Part shown: positions 4,174-44,045 of the stretch, piece after piece
Layout: each line of letters starts with the position of its first letter
How positions within the stretch are numbered: position 1 is the first letter of the stretch
From: Acidimicrobiia bacterium
GTDB taxonomy: Bacteria > Actinomycetota > Acidimicrobiia > Spongiisociales > UBA5794
Reading direction: 5' to 3'
Assembly: GCA_030431785.1 (NCBI GenBank)
Contig: JAUIIM010000004.1
Coordinates: 5,415-69,414 of the forward strand
DNA: 64,000 nt
The notes under the pieces: model-generated
Told to the model about the DNA's origin: nothing
The model's database searches: none
What the model saw: the letters and a program-made list of their open reading frames with translations, nothing else
Made by a program: the position numbers and the translations under genes

Positions 4174-4209
4174 CGTACCCAGACTACGCCGGCGTCCTCG
4201 CCGAACGTA

Positions 4210-5100: not shown

Positions 5101-5193
5101 CTGGCTCCTTCTCTCATGGTGAAAGAGCAGGAATCGTCGATTTTGCGCGACACGAGCATCGCTTGGGCCCGTCGTTCCTATCATCGGCTGCAC

Positions 5194-26331: not shown

Positions 26332-26354
26332 AACGTATCAACGGGGTGTGACAG
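26332..26354 (-). promoter_or_regulatory. CTGTCACAC-N8-TACGTT promoter-like motif, 6 nt upstream of the HNH gene ATG (leaderless geometry)
   Basis: The minus strand reads TTCTGTCACAC CCCGTTGA TACGTT GTATCC ATG. The 12-nt core is identical to the recA and LysM copies. Confidence 0.6.
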
Positions 26355-26370
26355 AAACTGAGCAAACGTC

Positions 26371-27366
26371 CTACAGCTCCGGGATCTCCACGGGTTGGCC
26401 GCTGGCGATCGACTCCTCGATACAGCGTGAGACAAGGAGCGAGATCGTCCCGTCACGCGGCCCGGGCACCGTGACGTCCTCTCCGGCTATCCGTGCCACC
26501 GTCGCTGCCAACAGCGGGGCGGTCCCGGCAGCAAACGGGTCGTCCGTCGGGTCGATGACGACCTCGTCCACCTCGCCCGGCCGATGCAGGACAAGCCGGC
26601 GACCGTGATCGTGAATCGTTGCGTTGACCCCGGATGCAGCAGTCTGGAACGACCAGGTCGACACCAACGCACTCGCACCGGCGGTTCCATGGATGAGGGA
26701 GCCGACCGCACCGTTGGCGAACAGCAAGGTCGCCGTGGCGGTGTCGGGATCCCCGGACGTGCCGGAGGCGCCAGAAGCCTGCCCCTCTGCGAACACCCGC
26801 ACGACCTCGCTCCCGCTGAGGAAGCGGAGGAGGTCGACGGAGTGGACGAGCGAGCTGACGAGTCGCCCGCCCGACAGTGCCGGATCGTTCACCCAGCTGC
26901 TCGCTCCCGGCGGTGCAGGGTCGTAGAGGGTGTGTGCATGCAGGACCCGCGGCTCGGGAACCGCACGCCGGGCGGCCACAGAGGCCGCTGTGTACCGGAA
27001 CTTGTAGCCAACGCTGACTACGACCCCGCACTTCTCAGCGACACGCTCGATGTCGAGACATTCCTCCACGGTCATCGCCATCGGCTTCTCCAACAGGATG
27101 TGCTTGCCGCTTCGAGCCCCCGCCAAGGCGAGGTCGTGATGCGTGTGGGTCGTGGTCGCGATCACCACCAGATCGATGTGGGGGGAGTCCCACACGTCTT
27201 CCAGGCGGTTCGTCGCCGTCGAGCCGGTGTCCGCCGCCAGGTCCGTGGCCCGAGGTTCGTCGAGGTCGGCGCACAGGAGGAGTTCCGTGTCCCGAGAAGC
27301 GACCACGTTGCTGGCGTGGATTCTGCCCTGGAATCCGCACCCGATCACTGCTACTCCCAACGGCAT
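26371..27366 (-). CDS. Gfo/Idh/MocA family oxidoreductase
   Basis: Rossmann N-terminus VAVIGCGFQGRIH. Start at ATG 27366. I rejected the 116-aa Arg/Cys-rich ORF extension. Confidence 0.8.
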   Translation of the reverse strand: MPLGVAVIGCGFQGRIHASNVVASRDTELLLCADLDEPRATDLAADTGSTATNRLEDVWDSPHIDLVVIATTTHTHHDLALAGARSGKHILLEKPMAMTVEECLDIERVAEKCGVVVSVGYKFRYTAASVAARRAVPEPRVLHAHTLYDPAPPGASSWVNDPALSGGRLVSSLVHSVDLLRFLSGSEVVRVFAEGQASGASGTSGDPDTATATLLFANGAVGSLIHGTAGASALVSTWSFQTAASGVNATIHDHGRRLVLHRPGEVDEVVIDPTDDPFAAGTAPLLAATVARIAGEDVTVPGPRDGTISLLVSRCIEESIASGQPVEIPEL

Positions 27367-27449
27367 TGCGGCCACGCTCCAAGCTCTAGTCAACGTTGTT
27401 GATGAATTGAGCGTAGACCCGGTACTGACGGCTTGCGTACACTCGGCGC

Positions 27450-27860
27450 ATGAACCTCGATGACATCCGGGTACGGCTCGGAGAGATCCAAACCGAACTG
27501 CTCGACCTGCCCGACGATGCCTTCGAGCAGCGCCACAAACTGCGAGAGGAACAGGACCGTCTCCGGACCGAAGCTCGGTCGCACGCCGGTGACATGGACA
27601 AGGATCGGTCCACCCCAGACCTCCTGTCCGAACTCTCCGGCCTCCGCACCCAGATGAAGTCGATCGAGAAGATGCGCATCGACCTCGTTCAGCAGGCCGG
27701 TTCCGGTGGCGCAACTTCCTCCGAGATGGGGAACCTCGGTGGCGTGAAGATCAACAAGGGGATCGACGATGCGCAGGGCCTCCCTGCCATCAAGGCGCGG
27801 ATCGGCCTGATCAAAGGCATCCTCATCGACCGCGGCGTCGAGGTACCAGAAGCGGACTGA
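27450..27860 (+). CDS. hypothetical protein
   Basis: 136 aa with a coiled-coil-like N-terminus. TACACT sits 6 nt upstream of the ATG (leaderless geometry). The competing antisense ORF 27390..28043 has arginine-rich composition. Confidence 0.45.
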   Translation: MNLDDIRVRLGEIQTELLDLPDDAFEQRHKLREEQDRLRTEARSHAGDMDKDRSTPDLLSELSGLRTQMKSIEKMRIDLVQQAGSGGATSSEMGNLGGVKINKGIDDAQGLPAIKARIGLIKGILIDRGVEVPEAD

Positions 27861-27903
27861 CGCCGACTTTGTACTCGGGCACAGACCGCCATACGCTGCG
27901 GTT

Positions 27904-28782
27904 ATGGGCGACCACCATGTACATCTGCACCCGCACGGTGCCAATGCCGAGACGGGACCGCCACCGGGGGAGTACCCCGATGGGCACATCGAGTCGTACG
28001 TCGAGCATGCTGCCACAAATGGTGCGATGGAGGTCGGGTTCACGGAGCACCTCTACCGATGTGTCGAGTCCGCCGATGCCCTCGGTACGTGGTGGGAAAC
28101 AGACCCGAACAAGGACCTTGCTGCATCGACGGCCGCCTATGTCCACGGTGAGCGGGTGCTCTCGCTCGACAAGTACGTCGATGCGGTGCTTGCGGCCAAG
28201 GACCGCGGACTCCCGGTACTCCTCGGGCTCGAGGTGGACTTCTTCCCCGAGACGATCGAAGCGGTCCTCGACCTCCTCAAGCCGTATCCGTTCGACTTCC
28301 TGATCGGATCGACCCACTGGCTCGGTGCATGGGGAATCGACCTCGAACAGCAAGTCCATGAGTTCGACCGGCGCGGTCACGAACAGTCCTACGAGGACTA
28401 CTTCGCCGTGGAAACCGAACTTGCCCTCTCCGGAACGGTCGATGTTCTCGCTCACTCCGACGTCGTGAAGAAGCAGGGGGTGTTCCTGCCGACGCCTCCG
28501 TTGGAGCTCTACGACACGTTGGCCGAGGCAGCCGGCCGCTCGGGTGTTGCCGTCGAGGTCTCGACCGCTGGGCTGTATCAACCGGCGAAGGAGATGTACC
28601 CGCATCCCGACCTCCTGCAACGGATGTACGCCAACGGTGTCCCCATCACGCTGGCCTCGGACGCTCACCGCCCGAAGAAGTGCGGCCGCGATCGAGACCG
28701 GGCACTCGAGCTCGCCAAGTCTGTCGGATACACGTCGAGTCTCACGTTTCGCGAGCGACAGCCCATCGACGTTCCCTTCTGA
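27904..28782 (+). CDS. histidinol-phosphatase, HisJ (PHP) family
   Basis: PHP motifs DHHVHLHPHG, TEH and ASDAH. Confidence 0.8.
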   Translation: MGDHHVHLHPHGANAETGPPPGEYPDGHIESYVEHAATNGAMEVGFTEHLYRCVESADALGTWWETDPNKDLAASTAAYVHGERVLSLDKYVDAVLAAKDRGLPVLLGLEVDFFPETIEAVLDLLKPYPFDFLIGSTHWLGAWGIDLEQQVHEFDRRGHEQSYEDYFAVETELALSGTVDVLAHSDVVKKQGVFLPTPPLELYDTLAEAAGRSGVAVEVSTAGLYQPAKEMYPHPDLLQRMYANGVPITLASDAHRPKKCGRDRDRALELAKSVGYTSSLTFRERQPIDVPF

Positions 28783-28811
28783 GTCCGGGCACCGTCGTAC
28801 ACTCGACTCCG

Positions 28812-30137
28812 ATGACCGCTTCCCCCACCTCACCCACGGTGTGGCTCACCACACTCGGGTGTTCGAAGAACCAGGTCGACTCGGACAAGATCTCCTCCGT
28901 CCTCGAGTCGTCCGGCTACGTCGACGCCGACTCACCGGAGTCGGCCGATGTCGTCATGGTCAACACGTGTGGATTCATCGAGGACGCCCGCCGCGAATCG
29001 GTCGAGACCATCCTCGATCTCGCGGGCGCCAAGCGTGAGGACGCAAAGCTCGTCGTGATGGGGTGCATGGCGCAGCGATACGAGTCCGAACTGATCGAGG
29101 CGCTCCCGGAGGCAGATGCGGTGATCGGACTCGACCGGTACCCGGAGCTCATCGACGAACTCGATGCGATGACCGGATGGCAACCGATCTCGATCTCCGG
29201 TGTCAAGCGCAGCCACATGGACATCCTCGAAGTCGTCAACCGTCCGACACCAGTTACACCGTTCGCCTATGTGAAGGTCGCCGAGGGTTGCAACAAGACG
29301 TGTGCGTTCTGTGCCATCCCACTGATCCGCGGGAAACAGCGGTCGCGACCGGGGGCCGGGATCATCGCCGAGATCGAGGGGCTCGTGGCCGGGGGAGTAC
29401 AGGAAGTCGTGCTCGTCGCCCAGGACCTCGCTGCCTACGGTCGAGACAACGGTGCCGGCAGCATCGAACAACTCGTCCGTGATGCCGCCGACGTCGACGG
29501 TCTCGGCCGGCTCCGGCTCTACTACCTGTATCCACGGGAGATCCGCGATGGTCTCATCGAGGTGATGACGGAACACCCGGTGATCGCCGACTACTTCGAT
29601 CTGTCACTACAGCACGCCTCTCCCACGCTGTTGCGCTCCATGCGCCGACCGGGGAGCGGGGAGAAGCACCTGGCGTTGATCGAGAAGATCCGAACCGCCG
29701 CACCGCATGCCGCCACCCGGTCCAGTTTCATCGTGGGCTTCCCGGGCGAGACGGAGGAGGATCACGAGATGCTGGCCGACTTCCTCGTCGAGGCACAACT
29801 CGATTGGGCCGGGTTCTTCCCCTACTCGAACGAGGAAGGCACCACCGCTGCCGAGCTCCCTGACCACCTCCCCGCCGACGTGATCGGTGAACGGCTGCGG
29901 CATGTCCAATCCATCCAGGAGGACATCACCGCTGCAAAGAATGCCGATACCGTCGGATCGACGATGCGGGTGCTCGTGGACCAAGTAGAGAACGGTCGTC
30001 CGGTGGGTCGTTCCTTCCGTGAGGCCCCCGAGATCGACGGCATGATCGTGCTCGACTCTGCAGAGGCCGGGACATGGGTGGATGCCGAGATCGTCGGTGC
30101 GTACGGTTCGGACCTCCAGGGCAGGGTCGTGTCGTGA
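28812..30137 (+). CDS. rimO: ribosomal protein S12 methylthiotransferase
   Basis: UPF0004 N-terminus (LGCSKNQVDS), radical SAM motif CNKTCAFC and a TRAM C-terminus. Start at ATG 28812. Confidence 0.9.
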   Translation: MTASPTSPTVWLTTLGCSKNQVDSDKISSVLESSGYVDADSPESADVVMVNTCGFIEDARRESVETILDLAGAKREDAKLVVMGCMAQRYESELIEALPEADAVIGLDRYPELIDELDAMTGWQPISISGVKRSHMDILEVVNRPTPVTPFAYVKVAEGCNKTCAFCAIPLIRGKQRSRPGAGIIAEIEGLVAGGVQEVVLVAQDLAAYGRDNGAGSIEQLVRDAADVDGLGRLRLYYLYPREIRDGLIEVMTEHPVIADYFDLSLQHASPTLLRSMRRPGSGEKHLALIEKIRTAAPHAATRSSFIVGFPGETEEDHEMLADFLVEAQLDWAGFFPYSNEEGTTAAELPDHLPADVIGERLRHVQSIQEDITAAKNADTVGSTMRVLVDQVENGRPVGRSFREAPEIDGMIVLDSAEAGTWVDAEIVGAYGSDLQGRVVS

Positions 30138-31369
30138 TCGTCGAGACCCTTGCGATCGGAACCGAGCTGCTTCTCGGACAGATCGTCAACTCGAATGCTG
30201 CCGACATCGCCTCCCGGTTGGCTGATGCCGGTATGACGCACTACCGGCAGGGGGTCATCGGAGACAACCGGGACCGCATGGACGACGCCATCCGCTACGC
30301 CACTGGTCGCTGTGACGCCCTGATCATGACGGGAGGGATCGGACCGACCGCCGACGATGTGACTCGTGAGAGCGTGGCGGCGGTTGCCGGTGTCCCGCTC
30401 ATCACCGACGAGGCGTACATCGAGGAGATGCGTGAGCGGTGGAAGGCGCGTGGACGAGAATTCCCGGAATCGAACATCCGTCAGGCACAGCGACCGGCGG
30501 GCGCACAGGTCATCCCGAATCGCAAGGGGTCAGCTCCCGGATTCCGCATGGAGATCGACGGTTGCTGGGTCATCTCGCTTCCCGGGGTGCCTGCCGAGAT
30601 GCTCACCATGCTCGACGAGGAAGTCATGCCGTTCCTGCGTTCTGTCGCCGGTCCGGGTCTCGGGATCACGGAGAGTCGCATGCTGCGCACGTGGGGGATG
30701 AGTGAAGCCCGTGTGGGGGAGGAACTCGACGACCTGTTCCGCGAGCTCGAGAACCCGACCGTCGCCTTCCTCGCCTCGGCTGGGGAGATCAAGATCCGTC
30801 TCACGGCGAACGCACCGACGAGCGAGAAAGCCAAGGAGATCATCGCACCGGTCGAAGCCGAGATCCGCGAGCGCCTGGGCTCGCTGGTGTTCGGGGCGGA
30901 CGAAGACACCATCGAGACCGTGCTACACCGGATGCTGCGGGGCAAGGGCTGGACCTTCGGGTCGGCCGAGTCCGCTACCGGAGGCCTGATCGCACGGCGG
31001 ATGACGGCCCTCGGCGGGGCGTCGGAGGTATTCCGTGGTTCGATCGTCGCCTATGCGACCGACCTCAAGGTCGGGTTGCTTGGTGTGGATGCTTCCGAGG
31101 TCGAGCAGCACGGGGTCGTGTCCGAGGAGACCGCCTTGTCGATGGCCAGGGGAGCGCGCGCATCCCTTGGTGTGGACGTCGCCGTTGCCGTCACGGGATC
31201 TGCCGGGCCCGAACCGATGGAGCAGCCGGTCGGGACGATGATCGTTGCGGTCGTCACCCCAGAAGGGGAATCGGTCCGCACGCTGATGATGCCCGGCGAT
31301 CGTGAACGGATCCGTGCCTACACGGCAACGGCAGCGTTGCACATGGTCCGTCGGGCCATCGAGCCCTGA
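30134..31369 (+). CDS. cinA: CinA family protein (MoCF-biosynthesis domain plus nicotinamide-nucleotide amidohydrolase PncC)
   Basis: N-terminal sequence TLAIGTELLLGQIVNSN and a C-terminal ESATGG motif. GTGA overlap with the rimO stop codon. Confidence 0.85.
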   Translation: MIVETLAIGTELLLGQIVNSNAADIASRLADAGMTHYRQGVIGDNRDRMDDAIRYATGRCDALIMTGGIGPTADDVTRESVAAVAGVPLITDEAYIEEMRERWKARGREFPESNIRQAQRPAGAQVIPNRKGSAPGFRMEIDGCWVISLPGVPAEMLTMLDEEVMPFLRSVAGPGLGITESRMLRTWGMSEARVGEELDDLFRELENPTVAFLASAGEIKIRLTANAPTSEKAKEIIAPVEAEIRERLGSLVFGADEDTIETVLHRMLRGKGWTFGSAESATGGLIARRMTALGGASEVFRGSIVAYATDLKVGLLGVDASEVEQHGVVSEETALSMARGARASLGVDVAVAVTGSAGPEPMEQPVGTMIVAVVTPEGESVRTLMMPGDRERIRAYTATAALHMVRRAIEP

Positions 31370-31920
31370 TGTCGGGCAACCTGTTCGCTGCGGTGGCGCT
31401 CAGTGACGACGAACGGCACGCCCTCGCCGCTGTCCTCCGCGACTCGGGTGTTGCACGACGTATGCCGGGGAAGCGGACCAAACCCACCAACTGGCACATC
31501 ACCACCCGTTTCGTCGGAGAGGCGACCGATCCGGAGGCCGATCAGCTTGCGTATCGGATACAAGACCTGATGGACGTCGAACCGTTCCGTGTCGTCGTCG
31601 ATGGAATCGGTGGGTTCCCGAGGCCGTCGAAGGCGTCCGTGGTCTATGCATCGGTCGAAGACCCGACCGGGTCGCTGTCGGGTCTGGCCGCCTTGTGCGA
31701 CGTCGCCGCCACCGACGTCGGGTTCGAGCCGGAAGGGCGGCCGTTCGTCCCGCATCTGACGTTGTCGCGCACCCGTCCTCCGACCGACGTGACCCGCTTC
31801 CCGGAGTCGTTCGACGATCCCGTCCGGATCTCCGTGGGTGCGGTCACGATCTTCCGAACACGGTCCACGCGGGAGGGACCCGTCTACGACCCGCTCCACG
31901 AGATCGCACTCGTCGGGTAA
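31369..31920 (+). CDS. thpR: RNA 2',3'-cyclic phosphodiesterase (2H family)
   Basis: Two HxT/S motifs (HITTRF and HLTLSR). ATGA-type coupling to cinA. Confidence 0.8.
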   Translation: MSGNLFAAVALSDDERHALAAVLRDSGVARRMPGKRTKPTNWHITTRFVGEATDPEADQLAYRIQDLMDVEPFRVVVDGIGGFPRPSKASVVYASVEDPTGSLSGLAALCDVAATDVGFEPEGRPFVPHLTLSRTRPPTDVTRFPESFDDPVRISVGAVTIFRTRSTREGPVYDPLHEIALVG

Positions 31921-31930
31921 CGTTCCTCGC

Positions 31931-32374
31931 ATGTCCCCATCGATCACGCTCCGCGAAGTCGACGACTCCAACGTCAACCAGATCATCGATCTGAGCGTTG
32001 CTGATTCACAACAACACTTCGTCGCACCCAACGTTCGGTCGCTCGCGCAGGCGTATGCGACGACGAAGGTCTGGGTCCGTGCGGTGTACGCCGATGACGA
32101 ACCCGTCGGGTTCGCAATGCTGTCCGACGACCACGAGAAGCCTCGGTACTACCTCTGGCGGTTCATGATCGACGAGCGATACCAGGGGAAGGGCTACGGC
32201 AAGACCGCGCTCGGATTGATCCATGACTACGTGCGGTCACGCCCCGGTGGCGACCGCATCTATCTGTCGTACGTCCCCGCCGAGGGCGGTCCCGAGCACT
32301 TCTACAAGGCGCTGGGATACGTGGATACCGGCGTCGTGCACGACGGTGAGAACGAAGCCGTCCTAGCGCTCTGA
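31931..32374 (+). CDS. GNAT family N-acetyltransferase
   Basis: 147 aa. Acetyl-CoA binding region RYQGKGYGKTAL. Start at ATG 31931. Confidence 0.75.
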   Translation: MSPSITLREVDDSNVNQIIDLSVADSQQHFVAPNVRSLAQAYATTKVWVRAVYADDEPVGFAMLSDDHEKPRYYLWRFMIDERYQGKGYGKTALGLIHDYVRSRPGGDRIYLSYVPAEGGPEHFYKALGYVDTGVVHDGENEAVLAL

Positions 32375-32383
32375 CCGAGATCC

Positions 32384-32411
32384 TTGAATCGAACAGGTGT
32401 TCGGTTACACT
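32384..32411 (+). promoter_or_regulatory. recA promoter candidate with embedded LexA (Cheo-type) box
   Basis: -35 TTGAAT (32384-89), -10 TACACT (32406-11), 16-nt spacer. The box TCGAACAGGTGTTCGG (32389-32404) occupies the spacer. Confidence 0.65.
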
Positions 32412-32432
32412 GACGGCGTTGCCGAACCGGAT

Positions 32433-32455
32433 CTGTCACACCCGCAGGGTACGTT
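32433..32455 (+). promoter_or_regulatory. second recA promoter candidate, CTGTCACAC-N8-TACGTT (RecA-NDp-like)
   Basis: ATCTGTCACAC CCGCAGGG TACGTT, 26 nt upstream of the recA ATG, with the GAAAGGA Shine-Dalgarno in between. Confidence 0.6.
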
Positions 32456-32481
32456 GACGGGACCATACGAAAGGAACCGAC

Positions 32482-33558
32482 ATGGCGAAGGGCGCCGACG
32501 AAAACAGCAGGGCCGAGAAGGACAAGAACCTTGAGATGGCCATGTCCCAGATCGAGCGGCAGTTCGGTACGGGTGCGATCATGCGACTCGGAACCGACCA
32601 GATCCGCAAGATCGATGCCATCCCGACGGGTGCACTCTCGCTCGACCTCGCTCTCGGTATCGGTGGGCTCCCTCGTGGCCGCGTCGTCGAGATCTACGGT
32701 CCGGAGTCATCCGGGAAGACGACCCTCGCACTCCATGCGGTCGCCGAGGCGCAGCGCAACGGTGGAAGTGCGGCATTCATCGACGCCGAGCACGCACTCG
32801 ACCCGATCTACGCAAAGGCGATCGGTGTCGACATCGACGATCTCCTGATCTCCCAGCCCGACACGGGGGAACAGGCGCTCGAGATCGCCGACATGCTGAT
32901 CCGCTCCGGTGCGCTCGACGTGGTCGTGATCGACTCCGTCGCAGCGTTGGTTCCACGTGCCGAGCTCGAAGGCGACATGGGTGACACCCACGTGGGCCTC
33001 CAGGCACGGTTGATGTCCCAGGCTCTGCGGAAATTGTCGGGGACGATCAACCGTTCCCACACCACGGCGATCTTCATCAACCAGATCCGTGAGAAGATCG
33101 GTGTGATGTTCGGTTCGCCCGAGACGACGCCGGGTGGTCGTGCGCTCAAGTTCTACTCGAGCGTTCGTATCGACATCCGTCGCATCGAAGCGATCAAGGT
33201 TGGCACGGAGAACATTGGAAACCGTGTGCGCACGAAGATCGTCAAGAACAAGGTCGCCCCGCCATTTCGGATCGCCGAGTTCGACATCATGTTTGGGGAG
33301 GGCATCTCGCGAGAGGGCAGCCTCCTCGACGTCGCTGTCGAAGAGGGCATCGTCCGCAAGGCCGGCGCTTGGTACACCTACGACGGGGACCAGCTCGGGC
33401 AGGGTCGGGAGAAGGCGAAGGACTTCCTCCGTCAGAATCCGGACCTTGCTGTCCAGCTCCAGGATCAGGTCCTTCGTGCGGTCGGTGTGATCGAGGACGA
33501 AGCGGACGCAGAGGCCGAGGTCAGCGCCGACGATGCGGGTGACGACGCCGAGGGCTGA
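32482..33558 (+). CDS. recA: recombinase RecA
   Basis: Unmistakable RecA sequence ([29 protein letters not shown]). Confidence 0.97.
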
Positions 33559-33729
33559 TCCACCGGTGGTCGGCAGAGATTGTGTCAGCGCAGTCGGTGT
33601 CATGCGGTACCATCGGGGTACGACACACACAAACAACGACTGAAACCGACCGAAAGTCTCTGATGCCGCTGAACCGAGATACGAGGTGAACCAGGCTTAA
33701 CCCCCTGTGTGATCACGTATGTCGAGTGT

Positions 33730-33766
33730 GTGCCGAATCCGCATGGATTCGGCACGCTTGTTTCTC
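33730..33766 (+). terminator. rho-independent terminator candidate downstream of recA
   Basis: Perfect 11-bp stem GTGCCGAATCC / GGATTCGGCAC with loop GCAT, followed by GCTTGTTTCTC. Confidence 0.65.
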
Positions 33767-33813
33767 AGGCACCCAGAAGTCGGTCGGAGTCGGTCACATG
33801 GAACGAGGACATC

Positions 33814-35340
33814 GTGGATCAGGTAGCCAATCTGTTGATCCCCGGAGTGGTGATCGCCGCCGTGTTCATGGCCGGCCTCATCATCGGTCGGAAGCTCGTG
33901 CGCCAGCCGCAGGCACCCGAAGAGATCTTGTCGGATGCCCGCATCGAGGCGCAACGCATCCTTGCGAGAGCCGAGGAAGAAGCCCGCGCCAAGGCAGACA
34001 CCTATCGCGACCGTGAAGAGGCGACGCTCGAACACCGCAAGGTCGAGATCGACTCGCACGAGGAACGGATGAACCAGCGGGCTGCGACGCTCGAACAACG
34101 GGGAAAGAACCTCGCACAGCGCGAGGAGCTCGTCATCGAACGCGAACGGGCTGCCTCTGAGGCAGCTGCCGAGGCGGCACGGATGGCCGAGGATGCCCGT
34201 CTGGAGCTCGAAGCACTCGCGGGGTTCGACAGCCGTGCTGCGAAAGCCGAACTCCTCGAGAAGGTCGAGGACGAAGCCAGACGAGATGCAATGGTCCTCG
34301 TCCGTGACATGGAGTCCAAGGCGCGGGAAGAGGCGGAGCGTCGCTCACGTCGCATCCTCGCCACAGCGATCCAGCGCGTCGCATCCGACGTCGTCACCGA
34401 GACCTCGGTGTCCGCAGTCATGATCCCCTCAGAAGACATGAAGGGACGCATCATCGGTCGGGACGGGCGCAACATCCGCTCCTTCGAGTCCGTGACCGGT
34501 GTCGACCTGATTGTGGACGACACCCCGGACTCGGTGAGTGTCTCGACGTTCGATCCGGTTCGCCGTGAGATCGCCCGTCTGACCCTGGAACGGCTCGTGG
34601 AGGACGGCCGTATCCATCCGACGTCGATCGAGGAGGCCTACGCCAAGGCCCGCGACGAGGTGGAACAGTCGATCCGTGACGCAGGGGAGTGGGCGATGCT
34701 CGAAGTCGGCATCAACCGTCTCCACCCTGAGCTGACGACTCTGGTCGGACGTCTCCGGTACCGAACGTCGTACGGACAGAACGTCCTGAACCATCTGGTC
34801 GAATCGGCCCACATCGGCGGGATGCTCGCTGCGGAGCTGGGCATCGACGAGGCGGAGGCCAAGCGCGCCGCTTTCCTCCACGACATCGGCAAGGCGGTCA
34901 GCCACGAAGTCGGTGGGTCCCACGCCCTCATCGGTGCAGAGATCGCACGTCGGTTCGGCGAGGACGCCGCGATCGTCCATGCGATCGAGGCACACCACAA
35001 CGAGGTCGAACCGAGAACGCTCACGGCCGTGATCGTCCAGGCAGCCGATGCGGTGAGTGCAGCCCGGCCCGGTGCACGCCGAGAGGCGCTCGACTCCTAC
35101 GTCCGACGTCTCGAACGGCTCGAAGACATCGCGAGGAACTTCGACGGTGTGGAGAAGGTGTACGCCCTCCAGGCCGGTAGGGAAGTCCGTGTGGTCGTCG
35201 ACCCGGGCTCGATGGACGATCTCGCATCGAAGGACCTGGCCCGGAGCATCGCGAGGAAGCTCGAGAGCGACCTACAGTATCCGGGTCAAATCGAGGTCAC
35301 GGTCATCCGTGAGTACCGCGCCAAGGAGATCGCCCGCTAG
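33814..35340 (+). CDS. rny: ribonuclease Y
   Basis: N-terminal transmembrane helix, coiled coil, KH domain (GRIIGRDGRNIR) and HD domain (HDIGK). I chose GTG 33814 because the terminator hairpin lies inside the longer ORF that starts at 33709. Confidence 0.85.
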   Translation: MDQVANLLIPGVVIAAVFMAGLIIGRKLVRQPQAPEEILSDARIEAQRILARAEEEARAKADTYRDREEATLEHRKVEIDSHEERMNQRAATLEQRGKNLAQREELVIERERAASEAAAEAARMAEDARLELEALAGFDSRAAKAELLEKVEDEARRDAMVLVRDMESKAREEAERRSRRILATAIQRVASDVVTETSVSAVMIPSEDMKGRIIGRDGRNIRSFESVTGVDLIVDDTPDSVSVSTFDPVRREIARLTLERLVEDGRIHPTSIEEAYAKARDEVEQSIRDAGEWAMLEVGINRLHPELTTLVGRLRYRTSYGQNVLNHLVESAHIGGMLAAELGIDEAEAKRAAFLHDIGKAVSHEVGGSHALIGAEIARRFGEDAAIVHAIEAHHNEVEPRTLTAVIVQAADAVSAARPGARREALDSYVRRLERLEDIARNFDGVEKVYALQAGREVRVVVDPGSMDDLASKDLARSIARKLESDLQYPGQIEVTVIREYRAKEIAR

Positions 35341-35357
35341 CGGGTGCTGGAGCGTCC

Positions 35358-36746
35358 ATGTCGGAAGTCACCATGCTCGGAATGCCGGGTGTCAAAGAGG
35401 TTCGGCCGCGCACGCGTGAGGGCCGCACCTACTTCGTGCGTACGTTCGGTTGTCAGATGAACGAGCACGACTCCGAGCGGATCGCAGGTCTGCTCGAGTC
35501 GGACGGGATGTCACCCGTCGGCACGGCCGAAGAGGCGGATCTCGTCGTCCTGAACACGTGCACGATCCGGGAGAACGCCGACACGAAGCTCTACGGCTAT
35601 CTGGGCAGCCTCAAGCGTCTCAAGGACGATCGTCCGGACCTCCGTATCGCCGTGGGCGGCTGTTCGGCGCAGAAGGAACGAGACATCATCCAAGAACGCG
35701 CCGGGTGGGTCGACGTCGTGTTCGGTACGCACAACGTGCATCGGGTCGTCGACCTCCTCGACCATGCCGAAGAGTGGGGCCCGATCACCGAGATCTGGGA
35801 CGAGACGAAGACGGTCGATGACATCCCGAGTGGGCTCCCAGTCCACCGCGAGTCAGACCATTCAGCGTGGGTGACGATCACCATCGGCTGCAACAACTCC
35901 TGCACGTTCTGCATCGTGCCGATCGTGCGGGGTGCAGAGATCTCCCGCCGGCCCGGTGACGTCATCCGTGAGGTCGAACGTCTGGCGGAAAGCGGCGTGA
36001 AGGAGATCACGCTCCTCGGTCAGAACGTGAACTCCTACGGGCGCGATCTCGACCTGAACGGCCGCAAGCCGCTCTTTGCGGATCTGCTCCGCAGGGTCGG
36101 TGCCGTCGAGGGGATCGAACGGGTCCGCTACACGTCCCCCCACCCGAAGGACTTCCGTGAGGATGTCGCCTTTGCGATGGCAGAAACACCGTCGGTGTGT
36201 GAACAGATCCACTTCCCCCTCCAATCCGGGAGCGATCGGATCCTCGCCCGTATGCACCGTGGCTACACGGCGGAACGCTTCCTCAGGAAGCTCGAGATGA
36301 TGCGCTCGATCGTTCCGGGCCTCAACGCCTCCACCGACGTCATCGTCGGGTTCCCCGGTGAAACGGAAGAGGACTTCCAGAAGACCCTCGACGTCATGGC
36401 ACAAGCCCGGTTCGACAACGCCTTCATGTTCCAGTTCAGCCCGCGCCCGGGGACCCCCGCTGCGGACTACCCGGACCACGTCGACCCTGATGTCGTCCAG
36501 GAGCGCTTCGACCGGCTCGTCGCACAGCAGAACCGCATCACCTTCGAACGGAACCAGGAAGAGGTCGGCACGATTCAACGGGTGATGGTGGAAGGCCCGT
36601 CGAAACGGGATGCGAAGATCGCCACGACCCGCACCCGTGGCAACAAGATCGTCCACATCCCGGGCACATGGGACGCCGGAACGTTCCTCGAAGCGCGTAT
36701 CGTGGAAGCAGCACCGCACTACCTCAGAGGAGAACTGGCATCCTGA
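35358..36746 (+). CDS. miaB: tRNA-2-methylthio-N6-dimethylallyladenosine synthase
   Basis: UPF0004 N-terminus (FGCQMNEHDS), radical SAM motif CNNSCTFC and a TRAM domain. Confidence 0.9.
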   Translation: MSEVTMLGMPGVKEVRPRTREGRTYFVRTFGCQMNEHDSERIAGLLESDGMSPVGTAEEADLVVLNTCTIRENADTKLYGYLGSLKRLKDDRPDLRIAVGGCSAQKERDIIQERAGWVDVVFGTHNVHRVVDLLDHAEEWGPITEIWDETKTVDDIPSGLPVHRESDHSAWVTITIGCNNSCTFCIVPIVRGAEISRRPGDVIREVERLAESGVKEITLLGQNVNSYGRDLDLNGRKPLFADLLRRVGAVEGIERVRYTSPHPKDFREDVAFAMAETPSVCEQIHFPLQSGSDRILARMHRGYTAERFLRKLEMMRSIVPGLNASTDVIVGFPGETEEDFQKTLDVMAQARFDNAFMFQFSPRPGTPAADYPDHVDPDVVQERFDRLVAQQNRITFERNQEEVGTIQRVMVEGPSKRDAKIATTRTRGNKIVHIPGTWDAGTFLEARIVEAAPHYLRGELAS

Positions 36747-37654
36747 ACGTCGTCGCGATCGTCGGGCACACCGCATCCGGGAAGTCTGACATCGCGGAAC
36801 ATGTCGCTCAGGTCTTCGGCGCCGAGATCATCTCGGTCGATTCGATGCAGGTCTATCGGGGCATGGACATCGGTACCGCAAAGCCGGATGCTGCAACCCG
36901 GGCACGGATCCCTCACCACATGGTCGACGTCGTCGAACCGGAGGTCGAGTTCTCGGTGCGAGAGTTCCAGACCCGTGCGCGGGCCGTGTTGGACGATTCC
37001 GGGGCACGTTTCGTCATCGCCGGGGGGAGCGGGCTGCACTTCCGTGCGGTGGTCGATCCGATGGAGTTCGCTCCGACCGACCCGGAGGTACGAGACCGGA
37101 TCGATCGCATGGACACCGATGTCGCTCGTGACCGTCTCGTCGCTGTCGACTCCGAGGCCGGATCGCACGTAGACCTTGCGAACCCGAGACGTGTCGCCAG
37201 GGCGTTGGAGATCCACGAACTCACGGGGGAGACGCCGACCCGGCGCTCTCGGAACCCCCAGAGCTCGGCGGTGGCCGGCTACGAAGCGCTCATCGAGCAC
37301 CACTCGATCGGAATCGATGCCGGAGAGGTCGCCCACGTACGTGCCGAGCAACGATGGAACGCCATGATCGAGCGAGGTCTTGTGGACGAGGTGGCTTCCC
37401 TGGTGGGCCGCATGTCGCGCACTGCAGCCCAGGCGGTCGGATACAAGGAACTGCTCCCCGTAGTGGCCGGAGAAACGACCCTCGAGGAAGCGAGCGAAGA
37501 TGCGTTGGCGGCGACACGCGGCCTGATCAAACGGCAACGCACCTACTTCCGTCGCGATCCCCGAATAGCGTGGATGCCGTGGCATGATGACGCCGAAACA
37601 CGGATCGCCGACGTCGTACGAGAGATCGAGGAGGTGGCGGGGTGGACTTCGTGA
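36668..37654 (+). CDS. miaA: tRNA dimethylallyltransferase
   Basis: P-loop GHTASGKS and DSMQVYRGMDIGTAKP. The only ATG (36668) overlaps miaB by 79 nt, so the true start is uncertain. Confidence 0.85.
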   Translation: MGRRNVPRSAYRGSSTALPQRRTGILNVVAIVGHTASGKSDIAEHVAQVFGAEIISVDSMQVYRGMDIGTAKPDAATRARIPHHMVDVVEPEVEFSVREFQTRARAVLDDSGARFVIAGGSGLHFRAVVDPMEFAPTDPEVRDRIDRMDTDVARDRLVAVDSEAGSHVDLANPRRVARALEIHELTGETPTRRSRNPQSSAVAGYEALIEHHSIGIDAGEVAHVRAEQRWNAMIERGLVDEVASLVGRMSRTAAQAVGYKELLPVVAGETTLEEASEDALAATRGLIKRQRTYFRRDPRIAWMPWHDDAETRIADVVREIEEVAGWTS

Positions 37655-38457
37655 AGGTGCAGGGACTCGGAAACGACTTCCTCGTATTCGACGGGCCGTT
37701 TACGCCGTCTCACGACGAAGTACGCCGCTGGTGTGACCGCCGCATGGGGGTCGGGGCCGACGGTGTGCTCGTCATCGCCCCGTCCGACGCCGGTGGAGTG
37801 ACGATGCGGTACTGGAACGCAGACGGCAGCGAAGCCGAGATGTGCGGTAACGGTCTGCGTTGTGTCGCCCGACTCGCTTACGACCGTGGATGGGTGGACG
37901 CCCCTGAGTTCGTCGTGCAGTCCGCCGTCGGAGATCATCCCGTCGTCGTCAAGGGTGATGTCGTGCGCGCGTTCGTCGGGACCCCGCAGGGCTATCGCAC
38001 TGACACTCTCAAGGTGGCGGATCAGGAAGTCCATCCGCTTTCGATCGGCAACCCGCACGCCGTGCTGTTCGTCGACGATGTAGATGACGCCGACGTCGAG
38101 GGGATCGGGCCGCGGATCGAAAACGATGCGATGTTCCCGGATCGCACCAATGTGGAGTTCGTGCAAGTCGTGAGTGGTCAGCCCGACGACGGCGACGAGG
38201 ACGACGGGGAAGAAGACCCCGACGAGGAGGTCGGCCCCAGTGTCGTACGTGCCCGCATCTGGGAGCGTGGTGTGGGGGAGACCATGGCGTCAGGGACCGG
38301 GGCGACCGCATCGGCCTACATGGCGTATCGGGTGCACGGTTTGATGGACCCGATCACCGTGCAACTACTCGGTGGTGACCTCGTCATCGACTTCGATGAG
38401 TCGGGAGCGTGGATGGAGGGCCCGACCGCTGTCGTGTTCTCCGGGTCGGTGAGCTGA
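37642..38457 (+). CDS. dapF: diaminopimelate epimerase
   Basis: GLGNDF, a catalytic Cys region (EMCGNGLRC) and SGTGA. GTG start overlapping the miaA stop codon. Confidence 0.85.
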   Translation: MDFVKVQGLGNDFLVFDGPFTPSHDEVRRWCDRRMGVGADGVLVIAPSDAGGVTMRYWNADGSEAEMCGNGLRCVARLAYDRGWVDAPEFVVQSAVGDHPVVVKGDVVRAFVGTPQGYRTDTLKVADQEVHPLSIGNPHAVLFVDDVDDADVEGIGPRIENDAMFPDRTNVEFVQVVSGQPDDGDEDDGEEDPDEEVGPSVVRARIWERGVGETMASGTGATASAYMAYRVHGLMDPITVQLLGGDLVIDFDESGAWMEGPTAVVFSGSVS

Positions 38458-38465
38458 GCCGTCCG

Positions 38466-39101
38466 TCAGTCGACGTGACGCAGCACAGCGACCACGACAC
38501 CGAGGATCTCGACGCCTTCCGAGAACACCATCGGCTCGTACGCCGAGTTCTCCGGATGCAGGATGACGCCGAGGTCGGTCTTCTCGAACCGCTTCACGGT
38601 CGCCTCTTCGCCTTCGACGAGAGCGGCCACGATCTGCCCGTTGCGGGCCGTGGACTGCTTCTGGACGACGACGTAGTCGCGATCGAGGATGCCGGCTTCG
38701 AGCATCGAATCGCCGCGGATACGCAGCATGAAGACCGGTTCCTGACCGACGAGCTCGGTCGGTAGTGGGTAGACCTCTTCGATGTCCTCGTCGGCGAGGA
38801 TCGGGGAACCGGCAGCGATGTGACCGACGAGCGGGACATCACGAACCGCAGCCCGCGAGATGTGGACGGCACCATTCGGTGGATCGATCACCTCGATCGC
38901 ACGGGGCTTGGATGGGTCCCTTCGGATGTAGCCGGCCTCGGCGAGGGACGAGAGGTGGGAGTGGACGGTGGACGGCGAACTCAATCCGACTTCGTCGCCG
39001 ATCTCACGGACCGACGGCGGATAGCCGCGCTCGGCCACCGTTGCGGTGATCAGGTCGAGGATCTGCTGCTGTCTGTTCGTGAGTTGTGTGCGTTCCGTCA
39101 C
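38466..39101 (-). CDS. lexA: LexA repressor
   Basis: Winged-helix N-terminus (REIGDEVGLSSPSTVHSHL), cleavage region and S24 peptidase (GDSM...VVVQKQ). GTG start with a GAGG Shine-Dalgarno. Confidence 0.92.
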   Translation of the reverse strand: MTERTQLTNRQQQILDLITATVAERGYPPSVREIGDEVGLSSPSTVHSHLSSLAEAGYIRRDPSKPRAIEVIDPPNGAVHISRAAVRDVPLVGHIAAGSPILADEDIEEVYPLPTELVGQEPVFMLRIRGDSMLEAGILDRDYVVVQKQSTARNGQIVAALVEGEEATVKRFEKTDLGVILHPENSAYEPMVFSEGVEILGVVVAVLRHVD

Positions 39102-39150
39102 ATGGACCTCGCTTTCTCAAAATGCAGGCTAGCGCAGATTCGCTCCCAGA

Positions 39151-39166
39151 CCAAACATATGTTCGA
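39151..39166. promoter_or_regulatory. LexA box (one half-site mismatch) in the lexA / unknown-gene divergent region
   Basis: CCAAACATATGTTCGA against the consensus TCGAAC-N4-GTTCGA. It is 50 nt from the lexA start and 53 nt from the divergent gene start. Confidence 0.6.
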
Positions 39167-39218
39167 TTGCTTGAGTTCAGTGTGTCGGCACTGCATAAGC
39201 TGCCAGCAGGAGGTCGTG

Positions 39219-39911
39219 GTGCGTAGGTTCTGGATGTTCGTCGGGGGAGCGATGGCGGTCGTCGCGATCGGTCTCATCGCGTATCTGCTCGTCCGTGACA
39301 CTGGGCCCGATCCGGGTCCCGTCGTGCAGTCGGGCGTGACTGCGCCGGGCGAGACGCTGGTCCGACTGGACACGTTGCAATGCCACCGCGAGATTCCCGG
39401 ATGGCGTGCGGCGGGGTCGTCGGACGACATCGCCGCCGTCCGAGCGTGGTACGCCGAGAACTTCGGTGCCCTGGTACAGCCCTGGACGGACCTCGCCAAT
39501 TCACGGGGTGCGATCGGTGAGATGGTCGTGTACGAGGACATCGCCGTCTGGTTCCGTGAAGAGGGGCGCTACACGGTCTCGACCTTCGAGAGTGCCGATC
39601 ACTCCTGTGTCCCGGACGGGGCCGAACTCTGGGACGGCCGACCGGTCACCGCATGGAGCGGGATCGGTGTCTGCGACGAACTCGATCTCGTCGGATTCGG
39701 GGGAGCGACCGGCATCTACGGCCCGAAGGAGGTCGCCCCCGGTGTCGTCACGCCGCCGCTCGATGCACCGCCACGCGGATGGGAAAGCGAGTCGTACGAC
39801 TCGGCAGCGACGATCTGGTACAACCAGCGCGATGCGTCCGAGATCGTGATCCGGTTCACCGCCGGTGCCGAGCTGTATCGCTACGCCATCGGCGGTTGTG
39901 CGGGGGAGTGA
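39219..39911 (+). CDS. hypothetical membrane-anchored protein with Cys-containing extracytoplasmic domain
   Basis: AGGAGG (39208-13) lies 5 nt before GTG 39219. There is an N-terminal transmembrane helix (FVGGAMAVVAIGLIAYLLV). I recognise no family. Confidence 0.55.
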   Translation: MRRFWMFVGGAMAVVAIGLIAYLLVRDTGPDPGPVVQSGVTAPGETLVRLDTLQCHREIPGWRAAGSSDDIAAVRAWYAENFGALVQPWTDLANSRGAIGEMVVYEDIAVWFREEGRYTVSTFESADHSCVPDGAELWDGRPVTAWSGIGVCDELDLVGFGGATGIYGPKEVAPGVVTPPLDAPPRGWESESYDSAATIWYNQRDASEIVIRFTAGAELYRYAIGGCAGE

Positions 39912-39914
39912 TCC

Positions 39915-40202
39915 TCAGCTGTTGGCTGCGGGGATCTCGATCAGCTGGCCCGGCTGGAGTGAGCCCGCATCGATGTCGTTGATCTGCTCGATGATCCGTA
40001 CGACCTCACGTCGGTCGATATGGGATGGACCATGGTCTGCGGCGATCTGCCAGAGCGTGTCGCCCCCACGGACCCGATACGGCTCGGTTGCCGTGACCTC
40101 TGGTGTTGCCTGGACAGCCGAGGCGAGGAGTATCAGGATGACGACGACCGTGATGGAGATGATGGAGAGCGCTCGGAGGCGAACGCTTGCGGCTGTGGTC
40201 AT
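39915..40202 (-). CDS. small membrane-anchored LysM-domain protein (ChiZ/DivS-position SOS gene candidate)
   Basis: 95 aa. Transmembrane helix followed by a LysM domain (YRVRGGDTLWQIAADHG...LQPGQLIEIP). GAGGAG Shine-Dalgarno 8 nt upstream of the ATG. Confidence 0.75.
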   Translation of the reverse strand: MTTAASVRLRALSIISITVVVILILLASAVQATPEVTATEPYRVRGGDTLWQIAADHGPSHIDRREVVRIIEQINDIDAGSLQPGQLIEIPAANS

Positions 40203-40259
40203 GATCTGTACTCCTCGTACCTCGTGCTACCCAGAAAGGAGCTGAGCTCCTCAACGATC

Positions 40260-40282
40260 AAGGTACGAATCGGGTGTGACAG
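40260..40282 (-). promoter_or_regulatory. CTGTCACAC-N8-TACCTT promoter-like motif proximal to the LysM gene
   Basis: The minus strand reads ATCTGTCACAC CCGATTCG TACCTT, 57 nt upstream of the LysM ATG. Confidence 0.6.
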
Positions 40283-40320
40283 ATTTTGACCGTTGCGGTC
40301 TGTCGCCTTCACACGCCGAA

Positions 40321-40336
40321 TCGAACACTTGTTCGA
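40321..40336. promoter_or_regulatory. perfect LexA box 1
   Basis: TCGAACACTTGTTCGA is a perfect palindrome. It lies just downstream of the predicted start site of the distal minus-strand promoter. Confidence 0.75.
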
Positions 40337-40346
40337 CAACACGCAC

Positions 40347-40375
40347 AAGGTATCGAACACCTGTTCGATTGTCAA
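40347..40375 (-). promoter_or_regulatory. distal LysM-gene promoter with LexA box 2 filling the spacer
   Basis: The minus strand reads TTGACA (40375-70), a 17-nt spacer ATCGAACAGGTGTTCGA containing the perfect box TCGAACACCTGTTCGA (40353-68), then TACCTT (40352-47). Confidence 0.7.
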
Positions 40376-40421
40376 GCACTTGTTTGGTCACGCCTTGTCG
40401 GAACGGGCTACTCTGCGCCGG

Positions 40422-42123: not shown

Positions 42124-42552
42124 ATGAAGATACCTGTGATCCACGAAGACTCCCGTATTCCGATCCCGACGATCGCTCATCCCGGGGACGCCGGCGCCGA
42201 TCTCGCCGCCGCCGAGGCGGTGACGATCCCATCGGGAGGCCGTGCTTTGATTGGTACCGGCCTGCGTGTCGCGATCCCTGACGGACACGCCGGTCTGGTG
42301 CTCCCGCGGTCCGGGTTGGCGACGCGGTTGGGGGTCACGGTGTCGAACGCTCCCGGTTTGATCGACGCCGGATACCGCGGTGAGTTGAAGGTTGGTCTGA
42401 CGAATCATGGGAGTGAACCGTTCTCGGTGGAGGTCGGTGACCGGATCGCCCAGCTGGTCATCATCGCCGTCGTCGAACCGGAGTTCGAGGTCGTCGACGT
42501 CCTGCCGGACTCGGATCGTGGTGCCGGAGGTTTCGGATCGACCGGGAAGTGA
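42124..42552 (+). CDS. dut: dUTP diphosphatase
   Basis: Motifs AGADL, PRSG, GLIDAGYRGE and a C-terminal RGAGGFGSTG. Confidence 0.92.
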   Translation: MKIPVIHEDSRIPIPTIAHPGDAGADLAAAEAVTIPSGGRALIGTGLRVAIPDGHAGLVLPRSGLATRLGVTVSNAPGLIDAGYRGELKVGLTNHGSEPFSVEVGDRIAQLVIIAVVEPEFEVVDVLPDSDRGAGGFGSTGK

Positions 42553-42598: not shown

Positions 42599-42671
42599 GC
42601 GGACGTAGCTCAGCTGGTAGAGCGCAACCTTGCCAAGGTTGAGGTCGCCGGTTCGAACCCGGTCGTCCGCT
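42599..42671 (+). tRNA. tRNA-Gly (GCC)
   Basis: Hand-folded cloverleaf. Acceptor GCGGACG/CGTCCGC, anticodon arm CAACC-TTGCCAA-GGTTG, T-loop TTCGAAC. Confidence 0.9.
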
Positions 42672-42710: not shown

Positions 42711-42784
42711 GGCGACGTGGCCGAGCGGCTAGGCAGGGGACTGCAAATCCCCGTACTCGGGTTCGAATCCCGACGTCGCCTCCA
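42711..42784 (+). tRNA. tRNA-Cys (GCA), CCA encoded
   Basis: Acceptor GGCGACG/CGTCGCC, anticodon arm GGGGA-CTGCAAA-TCCCC, T-loop TTCGAAT. Confidence 0.9.
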
Positions 42785-43970: not shown

Positions 43971-44045
43971 GGGCGCTTAGCTCAGCGGCAGAGCACTGCC
44001 TCGACACGGCAGGGGTCACTGGTTCAAATCCAGTAGCGCCCACCA
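43971..44045 (+). tRNA. tRNA-Val (GAC), CCA encoded, C at position 33
   Basis: Acceptor GGGCGCT/AGCGCCC, anticodon arm CTGCC-TCGACAC-GGCAG, T-loop TTCAAAT. Confidence 0.85.

Follow-up and report, generated by a model that had tools for sequence, protein, structure and literature searches.

A predicted PafBC-type DNA-damage promoter upstream of recA, a LysM gene and a DUF222-HNH gene in Acidimicrobiia

Introduction

Members of the class Acidimicrobiia are abundant in the environment and almost uncultured, and their gene regulation is experimentally uncharted; the class is regarded as early-branching within Actinomycetota. The DNA analysed here, 64,000 nucleotides (nt) from an Acidimicrobiia bacterium (assembly GCA_030431785.1, contig JAUIIM010000004.1, positions 5,415 to 69,414; hereafter the window; G+C content 64%), carries recA, a small LysM gene and a gene for a DUF222-HNH endonuclease, and each of the three is preceded by the same 12-nt box, TCTGTCACACCC, at a fixed distance from a TANNNT hexamer. 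The nearest relatives of the window RecA protein are named Acidimicrobiia bacterium. The question raised by this locus is what kind of promoter the box and the hexamer form together, and which protein reads it. An earlier note on this DNA had related the three sites to the LexA-independent RecA-NDp promoters of mycobacteria, which are driven by the WYL-domain activator PafBC, and had proposed a related but distinct class of damage-responsive promoters. Our analysis makes it probable that these sites are promoters of the activator-dependent RecA-NDp/PafBC type in a form proper to Acidimicrobiia. This class of box promoter is newly described for Acidimicrobiia and is otherwise a known promoter type.

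Three box promoters in the window

A scan of the window with the pattern CTGTCACAC-N8-TANNNT returned three matches, each oriented toward its own downstream gene, as compared with none in 100 dinucleotide-preserving shuffles. The earlier note had given the same three sites, and their positions and orientations were reproduced exactly, as was its view that a chance origin is very unlikely. The 12-mer is identical at the recA, LysM and DUF222-HNH sites (Table 1), and the distance from TGTCAC to TANNNT is 10 nt at every site. The ATG of the HNH gene (26325-26323) begins 6 nt past its TACGTT hexamer, in accordance with the earlier note, so that the transcript is predicted to be leaderless. At recA the start site is predicted at ~32461-32462, which would leave a leader of ~20 nt with an AAAGGA ribosome-binding site.

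The sole near copy of the 12-mer in the window, TCTGTCACACAC (19696-19707, minus strand), lies within the open reading frame (ORF) of an acyl-CoA synthetase and lacks a TANNNT at the required spacing, which bears out the dismissal by the earlier note of a coding copy near 19698-19706. When the box was relaxed by one mismatch across the window only one site was added, within chance expectation, and no further regulon member was obtained there. No -35-like hexamer at the proper distance and no upstream GAC arm, as in the DriD-type arrangement GAC-N7-GTC, was found at the window sites. A simple sigma-70 scan called no sigma-70-type promoter at recA, and an Rfam search over the window gave nothing at the promoters and returned three tRNAs only.

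Conservation of the box among Acidimicrobiia lineages

Loci of five further Acidimicrobiia lineages (L201, L202, L205, L208 and L242) were fetched through the RecA protein, the motif being left out of the choice. TGTCACA-N9-TANNNT was present before recA in all five (six of six with the window), the recA boxes of the different lineages being TGTCACACCC, TGTCACAGGG, TGTCACAGGC and TGTCACATGC. Upstream of the LysM gene, TGTCACACCC-N6-TANNNT was likewise found in five of five further lineages, and TGTCACACCC itself in six of six once the window is counted. Scatter of the motif without promoter or strand bias, named by the earlier note as a finding that would speak against its reading, was not encountered in these loci: all 17 matches in 182 kb of Acidimicrobiia loci are placed at recA, LysM or HNH promoters. 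When 12 promoters from the six lineages were set in register, TGTCACA and TA...T alone were conserved and the flanks diverged. The conserved core is thus TGTCACA and not the whole 12-mer, the leading TC not being invariant. The GTC triplet occurs at 3/3 window sites and at 12/12 promoters from the six lineages.

Distribution across genomes and promoter geometry

The pattern TCTGTCACACCC-N6-TANNNT was scanned in one genome per species over 185,579 species and was found at at least 120 loci (121 sites); the counts in this section and the next refer to the matches listed. Acidimicrobiia-type names label 42 loci, unclassified Actinomycetota or Actinomycetes metagenome-assembled genomes (MAGs) 22, named Actinomycetes taxa 16 and Conexibacteraceae one; the remaining 39 bear names of other phyla, three of them being clearly actinobacterial by sequence. 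Altogether, 84 of the 121 sites belong to Actinomycetota-type loci. Aquihabitans sp. G128 (NZ_CP077604.1), OY760694.1 and GCA_041393965.1 are examples of box-carrying Acidimicrobiia genomes that are complete or nearly so.

Of the 84 actinobacterial sites, 40 have, exactly 6-7 nt past the hexamer, an ATG or GTG that opens an ORF of at least 50 amino acids (aa), as against 2 of the 37 sites of other phyla. Start codons so placed imply leaderless transcripts, and hence point to the hexamer as the -10 element and to TGTCAC as lying at -28 to -23; it is from this geometry at related sites that the window hexamers are also predicted to act as -10 elements. A position matrix of 83 actinobacterial sites contains no -35-like (TTGACA-like) signal and no second half-site (GAC at -7 to -5), and it shows a preference for A/T immediately 5' of the box. 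Four extra sites off the seed pattern were present within the scan loci, all of them promoter-like, with none in reversed-sequence controls.

Leaderless geometry was also seen at the box of a few high-G+C viral or proviral IMG/VR contigs (L219, L227 and L236), where the gene that follows is DUF3263-like or an unnamed one encoding ~96 aa. Viral matches numbered 27 in all, and most of them look like chance.

Genes downstream of the box

The downstream proteins were clustered by BLASTP and then identified via Pfam, NCBIfam or their translation. The largest cluster consists of DUF222-HNH proteins (15 loci; the one member tested against Pfam carries both domains), followed by LysM proteins (5 loci; one member tested against Pfam), RecA (3 loci, recognised from translation) and UvrB (2 loci). 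Single loci encode a UvrD-HRDC helicase, an AdnB-like UvrD protein with a PD-(D/E)XK domain, Lhr, RadA, SbcD, DNA polymerase I (PolA), a PD-(D/E)XK nuclease, NurA, RmuC, Cas3, a DUF3263 protein and a ComF-like protein. The earlier note had advised a test for enrichment of the motif upstream of DNA-repair genes in related genomes; among the matches listed, the genes behind the box include recA, uvrB, uvrD-like and adnB-like genes, lhr, radA, sbcD and polA. Judged by its composition, this gene set is a putative DNA-damage regulon.

Two unnamed families, one of ~122 aa (6 loci: L009, L068, L070, L090, L097 and L104) and one of ~80 aa (4 loci: L012, L040, L042 and L119), consist of leaderless genes right behind the box with no Pfam or NCBIfam match, and are candidate new members of the damage regulon. 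In one Acidimicrobiia MAG (L117, 3801-6398, plus strand) the box promoter stands directly before a type I cas3 gene whose product has Cas3_HD and helicase domains, a hint at a link between CRISPR interference and the DNA-damage response in that genome.

Match to mycobacterial PafBC promoters

The M. smegmatis PafBC motif obtained by chromatin immunoprecipitation sequencing is tGTCgg(N10)tA(N3)T, with its upstream part at -23 to -28 and no -35 element (PMC8635444). The window sites agree with this mycobacterial RecA-NDp promoter, also written tTGTCRgtg-N8-TAnnnT, in the invariant GTC, the TGTCnn-N10-TAnnnT register, the placement at -28 to -23 and the absent -35, and both kinds of promoter have a TANNNT -10 element and frequent leaderless starts. 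In the published alignment of actinobacterial recA promoters, which spans 14 species, GTC alone is strictly conserved, two guanines being read by R46 and R50 of PafB, and the conservation of the bases after GTC does not exceed 50% in the motif as published (PMC8635444). It is in these bases that the two groups differ, ACA(C/G/T) following TGTC in Acidimicrobiia and RGTG or GG in mycobacteria, and a difference at positions so weakly conserved does not define a family.

The target genes agree as well: recA, the lexA-linked LysM gene, 13E12-type HNH genes and uvrB are common to mycobacterial PafBC promoters and the box promoters, the 13E12 family being, as we assume, that of the DUF222-HNH proteins. 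RecA-NDp of M. tuberculosis stands before recA, Rv2719c and the genes of the 13E12 family, Rv2719c being a LysM gene divergent from lexA with three SOS boxes (PMC3381160), and in M. smegmatis the expression of uvrB is PafBC-dependent (PMC5656591). The link to RecA-NDp and PafBC drawn by the earlier note is therefore upheld by the register, the GTC, the absent -35 and the same three classes of target.

The further proposal of a distinct promoter class found no such backing. The two forms of the box are lineage-specific: 182 kb of Acidimicrobiia loci contain TGTCACAC 10 times and TGTC[AG]GTG not once, and 686 kb of mycobacterium-like loci contain TGTC[AG]GTG once, TGTCGG three times and no TGTCACAC. 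Nevertheless, besides the weak conservation of the differing bases, the TGTCACAC form is also used outside Acidimicrobiia, the TCTGTCACACCC box standing with leaderless geometry before uvrB in Geodermatophilaceae (L057 and L079) and before polA in Actinoplanes (L084), and canonical PafB/PafC are listed for relatives of these box carriers, namely Blastococcus saxobsidens and Salinispora tropica. The box is best read, as far as such comparisons go, as a lineage version of the known class that is also used in some Actinomycetes.

The mycobacterial element is a proven activator site, at which PafBC wedges between DNA and sigma domain 4 (PMC8635444). By analogy, RNA polymerase with the housekeeping sigma factor would take the TANNNT hexamer as its -10 element at the box promoters, and the place of the lacking -35 would be filled by the conserved TGTCACA(C) box at -28 to -23, to which a WYL-domain activator, most likely an orthologue of PafB/PafC, would bind through its helix-turn-helix. 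Following the mycobacterial model, single-stranded DNA would switch on the activator, which would insert itself between sigma domain 4 and the DNA ('sigma adaptation'), and DNA damage would trigger the promoter without involvement of LexA. In the case of recA and the LysM gene, the box promoter would work beside a separate LexA-repressed promoter further upstream, and at the HNH gene it would act alone and yield a leaderless mRNA.

Search for the regulator

Acidimicrobiales possess a pupylation locus (PMC3511204), and in Actinobacteria pafBC has been reported close downstream of pafA within this locus (PMC8223512). For the search of PafB relatives the M. smegmatis PafB of PDB entry 7p5x was used as query, recovered with an M. 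tuberculosis sequence as probe. The matches listed were mycobacteria only, and those of a metagenome scan mycobacterium-like loci only; a scan of viral contigs for PafB gave nothing. Among the best 150 representatives of 50%-identity clusters, 20 were looked up, those with names being Actinomycetales, Antricoccus, Propionibacteriaceae, Isoptericola, Micrococcales, Nanopelagicales and Arthrobacter, and a PafB profile built from six divergent seeds had Kineococcus, Saccharopolyspora and unclassified Actinomycetota or Actinomycetes MAGs among its matches. Six PafB loci (L209-L214) show the canonical order pafA-FKBP-pafB-pafC-tatAC-helY and contain no site of the TGTCAC or the TGTCGG form. Our literature search found no paper linking Acidimicrobiia with PafBC or WYL regulators.

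Several points weigh against a PafBC-type promoter. A WYL-signature regular expression and a PafB-family hidden Markov model, run over the window and ~0.8 Mb of Acidimicrobiia-type DNA, detected neither pafB/pafC nor any gene of the helix-turn-helix-WYL (HTH-WYL) type, and no Acidimicrobiia label appeared among the named PafB relatives, in a sampling that was shallow and similarity-ranked, so that absence is not implied. The three bases after TGTCA/G are unlike the mycobacterial consensus (gg or Rgtg), and the box is conserved over 7-10 bases, more strongly than the mycobacterial one and beyond the two-guanine read-out described for PafB. Moreover, the M. smegmatis motif has been reported as not conserved in S. 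venezuelae (PMC9380542), which indicates that drift of the motif within PafBC-bearing lineages is real but poorly charted.

HTH-WYL genes, for which the earlier note had advised to look together with pafB/pafC, were found in other phyla, beside a dyad form of the box. At 8 of the 37 non-actinobacterial sites among the matches listed, the box is the promoter-proximal arm of GTGTGAC-N7-GTCACAC, followed by TANNNT (L024, L055, L076, L086, L100, L103, L107 and L120, in Acidobacteriota, Nitrospira and Desulfobacterota/delta-proteobacterial genomes). A gene for an HTH_11-WYL-WCX regulator lies within ~1.4 kb at four of these eight loci; the regulators have a recognition helix with R-x3-R-D like that of PafB, and their best sequence match in the PDB is PafC. 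The genes downstream of the dyads encode an AAA ATPase and small Cys-rich proteins without Pfam match, and the loci look like an undescribed DriD-like regulon. In C. crescentus the WYL activator DriD binds as a homodimer to ATACGAC-N7-GTCGTAT, the GTC half-sites being read by arginines, and its site, set at a constant spacing from the -10, substitutes for a weak -35 in a DNA-damage regulon with single-stranded DNA as the signal (PMC12340889). The dyad of the other phyla has the same geometry as the DriD site. By these likenesses, the box itself is in all probability a half-site of WYL-family regulators.

Alternative explanations

The same architecture could be served by an activator other than PafBC that reads the TGTCACAC half-site, a candidate being a WYL protein related to the palindrome neighbours of Acidobacteriota, Nitrospira and Desulfobacterota. 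Such an activator would be in keeping with the lack of an Acidimicrobiia PafB among the PafB relatives retrieved, with the identity of the extended box TGTCACAC(CC) to an arm of the palindromes beside non-PafBC WYL regulators, and with a conservation wider than the known read-out of PafB (PMC8635444). We regard it as unlikely, however: the actinobacterial sites are without a second half-site, which fits the PafBC heterodimer since only PafB reads DNA, PafBC-bearing families of Actinomycetes use the same form of the box before uvrB and polA, and the target genes correspond to those of mycobacteria.

A broader idea would regard the TGTCACAC half-site as an old element of HTH-WYL damage regulators common across phyla, which occurs as a dyad next to its homodimeric regulator in Acidobacteriota, Nitrospira and Desulfobacterota and as a lone half-site in Actinomycetota, the ancestral box being kept in Acidimicrobiia; the regulator of the latter may then be other than canonical PafBC, or may be a PafBC with a read-out of 7-10 bases in place of two guanines. 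We put this forward tentatively, as a possibility that is rather unlikely.

Very unlikely, in our view, is a repressor operator set between the -35 and -10 of an ordinary promoter and exerting negative control as LexA does. The position of the box directly 5' of the -10 is a frequent repressor location, but the lack of a -35-like hexamer at the 83 aligned or the window sites would make such a promoter very weak unaided, the box is a single asymmetric half-site without dyad, and the homologous mycobacterial element has been proven to be an activator site (PMC8635444). A dyad operator was rejected, there being no second half-site at the window sites or in the 83-site matrix.

Highly improbable is a regulon of an alternative sigma factor of the extracytoplasmic function type with TGTCACA as its -35; although an upstream element plus a hexamer superficially resembles a two-block sigma promoter, -35 and -10 elements require a spacing of 16-19 nt, and this explanation was rejected on the mere 10 nt between TGTCAC and the hexamer, which moreover is of the housekeeping TANNNT type with a start codon 6-7 nt downstream. 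A chance repeat, or one hitch-hiking without regulatory role on mobile elements such as the multi-copy, possibly mobile DUF222-HNH genes that are the commonest downstream gene among the matches listed, has practically negligible probability and was rejected on the empty shuffles and on the six-lineage footprint, in which the box keeps its spacing before the single-copy recA and LysM genes while the flanks diverge.

LexA control and the neighbourhood of recA and lexA

The dual control of recA and the LysM gene by LexA and the box, as put forward in the earlier note, fits the sequence, a LexA box lying within a separate upstream promoter of sigma-A-like appearance at each gene (Table 1). Both of these putative LexA-repressed promoters sit upstream of the box promoters; that of recA (P2) matches at 8/12 positions and was missed by the simple sigma-70 scan. 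The arrangement of LexA box and promoter at the LysM gene is likewise present in the relatives.

Table 1. Coordinates of genes, box promoters and LexA boxes in the window, and of two dyad-form loci from other phyla
Feature	Position	Strand	Sequence or remark
recA	32482..33558	+	Pfam RecA 7.4e-141
recA site, pattern match	32433-32455	+	upstream of recA
recA site, full sequence	32431-32455	+	ATCTGTCACACCCGCAGGGTACGTT
recA promoter P1, upstream box	32432..32443	+	TCTGTCACACCC; core TGTCAC 32434-32439, predicted -28 to -23
recA promoter P1, -10 hexamer	32450..32455	+	TACGTT
recA promoter P2, putative, LexA-repressed	32384..32411	+	TTGAAT, 16 nt, TACACT; LexA box in spacer; hexamers read from sequence
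recA LexA box	32389-32404		TCGAACAGGTGTTCGG; 1 mismatch
LysM gene, 95 aa	39915..40202	-	Pfam LysM; N-terminal hydrophobic stretch, then LysM domain
LysM site, pattern match	40260-40282	-	upstream of LysM gene
LysM site, full sequence	40284-40260	-	ATCTGTCACACCCGATTCGTACCTT
LysM promoter, upstream box	40272..40283	-	TCTGTCACACCC
LysM promoter, -10 hexamer	40260..40265	-	TACCTT; leader ~51 nt
LysM promoter, putative, LexA-repressed	40321..40375	-	TTGACA 40375-40370, 17 nt, TACCTT 40352-40347; toward LysM gene
LysM LexA boxes, two	40321-40336 and 40353-40368		both perfect
DUF222 + HNH endonuclease gene, 437 aa	25012..26325	-	Pfam DUF222 6.9e-21, HNH 1.6e-5
HNH site, pattern match	26332-26354	-	upstream of DUF222-HNH gene
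HNH site, full sequence	26356-26332	-	TTCTGTCACACCCCGTTGATACGTT
DUF222-HNH promoter, upstream box	26344..26355	-	TCTGTCACACCC; within 45-nt gap after stop codon of upstream oxidoreductase gene
HNH promoter, -10 hexamer	26332..26337	-	TACGTT
lexA	38466..39101	-	Pfam LexA_DNA_bind + Peptidase_S24
lexA, own LexA box	39151-39166		degenerate
nrdR	from ~40422	+	
L086 dyad	2015-2038	-	WYL gene 2067-3056 (-)
L100 box	5089-5112	+	WYL gene 3887-4894 (-)

The N-terminal hydrophobic stretch of the 95-aa LysM protein reads as a putative membrane anchor. Against the NCBIfam model of YneA, the SOS cell-division suppressor, the protein gives an E value of 1e-13 over the full model length, with 51 bits at a cut-off of 60, and these features suggest a division inhibitor of the YneA/ChiZ kind. 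Its 5' leader (40203-40254, minus strand) starts with a short hairpin, GGAGCTCAGCTCC, whose stability is not above that of shuffled sequence (z = -0.8). The end of the leader, preceding the start codon, is a conserved stretch, CTGGGTAGC..GAGGA.CGAGGAG. Apart from the window, the hairpin and this stretch occur in L202, L205 and L208, three of the five other lineages.

The gene order of the region, ftsK ... rimO-cinA-thpR-GNAT-recA-rny-miaB-miaA-dapF-lexA-LysM-nrdR, is common to Acidimicrobiia MAG contigs. Directly after recA comes the gene of RNase Y (rny, 33559-35340 in the window) and not recX, an order shared by all relatives fetched. In the relatives the LysM gene is divergent from lexA, lexA being on the minus strand and LysM and nrdR on the plus strand; compared with these, the LysM cassette of the window (39929-40390), with both LexA boxes and the box promoter, is inverted. 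Furthermore, ~760 bp (39167-39928) without counterpart in the relatives are inserted in the window, and an ORF there reads as a membrane protein. Through the inversion and the insertion the LysM gene of the window faces nrdR and not lexA. In another lineage (L242, 14641-16391, minus strand; same place in L243-L247) lexA is separated from the LysM promoter region by an insertion of a GNAT gene and an AlkZ-like gene; AlkZ-like proteins are glycosylases acting on DNA interstrand crosslinks.

The three tRNA genes of the window are located at 42599-42671, 42711-42781 and 43971-44042 (plus strand), and a perfect match to TCGAAC-N4-GTTCGA (42473-42488) stands just upstream of the first of them.

Implications

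The box promoters would extend the activator-driven, LexA-independent class of damage promoters beyond the class Actinomycetes, to which we take all 14 species of the published recA-promoter alignment to belong, to Acidimicrobiia. TGTCACA-N9-TANNNT, often with a leaderless start, could serve as a sequence-only predictor of the damage regulon in this class, with recA, uvrB, uvrD/adnB-like helicases, lhr, radA, sbcD, HNH elements, a YneA-like division inhibitor and once Cas3 as predicted members. The lineage-specific variable part of the box may also explain the failure to find the mycobacterial motif in Streptomyces. The occurrence of the half-site as a dyad beside WYL regulators elsewhere provides a testable link between DriD-type and PafBC-type systems, and if the half-site is indeed old and shared, it would show by what route a heterodimer came to carry out 'sigma adaptation', namely from a DriD-like system with a dyad of which one arm was lost.

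Comparison with known systems

The box promoters share with mycobacterial RecA-NDp the promoter plan and differ in the bases after TGTC and in the host class, Acidimicrobiia. The second, putative LexA-repressed promoter upstream of recA and of the LysM gene repeats the P2/P1 layout described for recA in mycobacteria (PMC11804915). The DriD site consists of a dyad bound by a homodimer, in contrast to the single half-sites of the window.

In Streptomyces the RecA-NDp box is TTGTCAGTGGC. The Streptomyces RecA-NDp promoters (recA and SCO6735) represent the same type outside mycobacteria and resemble the box promoters in the promoter type and in preceding DNA-damage-inducible genes (PMC5087735).

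LexA SOS boxes of the Gram-positive/actinobacterial form TCGAAC-N4-GTTCGA are found on the same recA and LysM genes, upstream of the box at a variable distance of ~28 to 70 nt among the lineages. Unlike the box, the SOS box is a palindromic repressor operator inside a separate promoter, and it is absent at the HNH gene. Finally, the LysM gene resembles the yneA-lexA pair of B. subtilis and the Rv2719c-lexA pair of M. tuberculosis, in which lexA likewise has as its neighbour a gene for a small membrane-anchored LysM protein under control of the damage response; it departs from them in that its score lies below the NCBIfam cut-off and that its cassette is inverted and faces nrdR.

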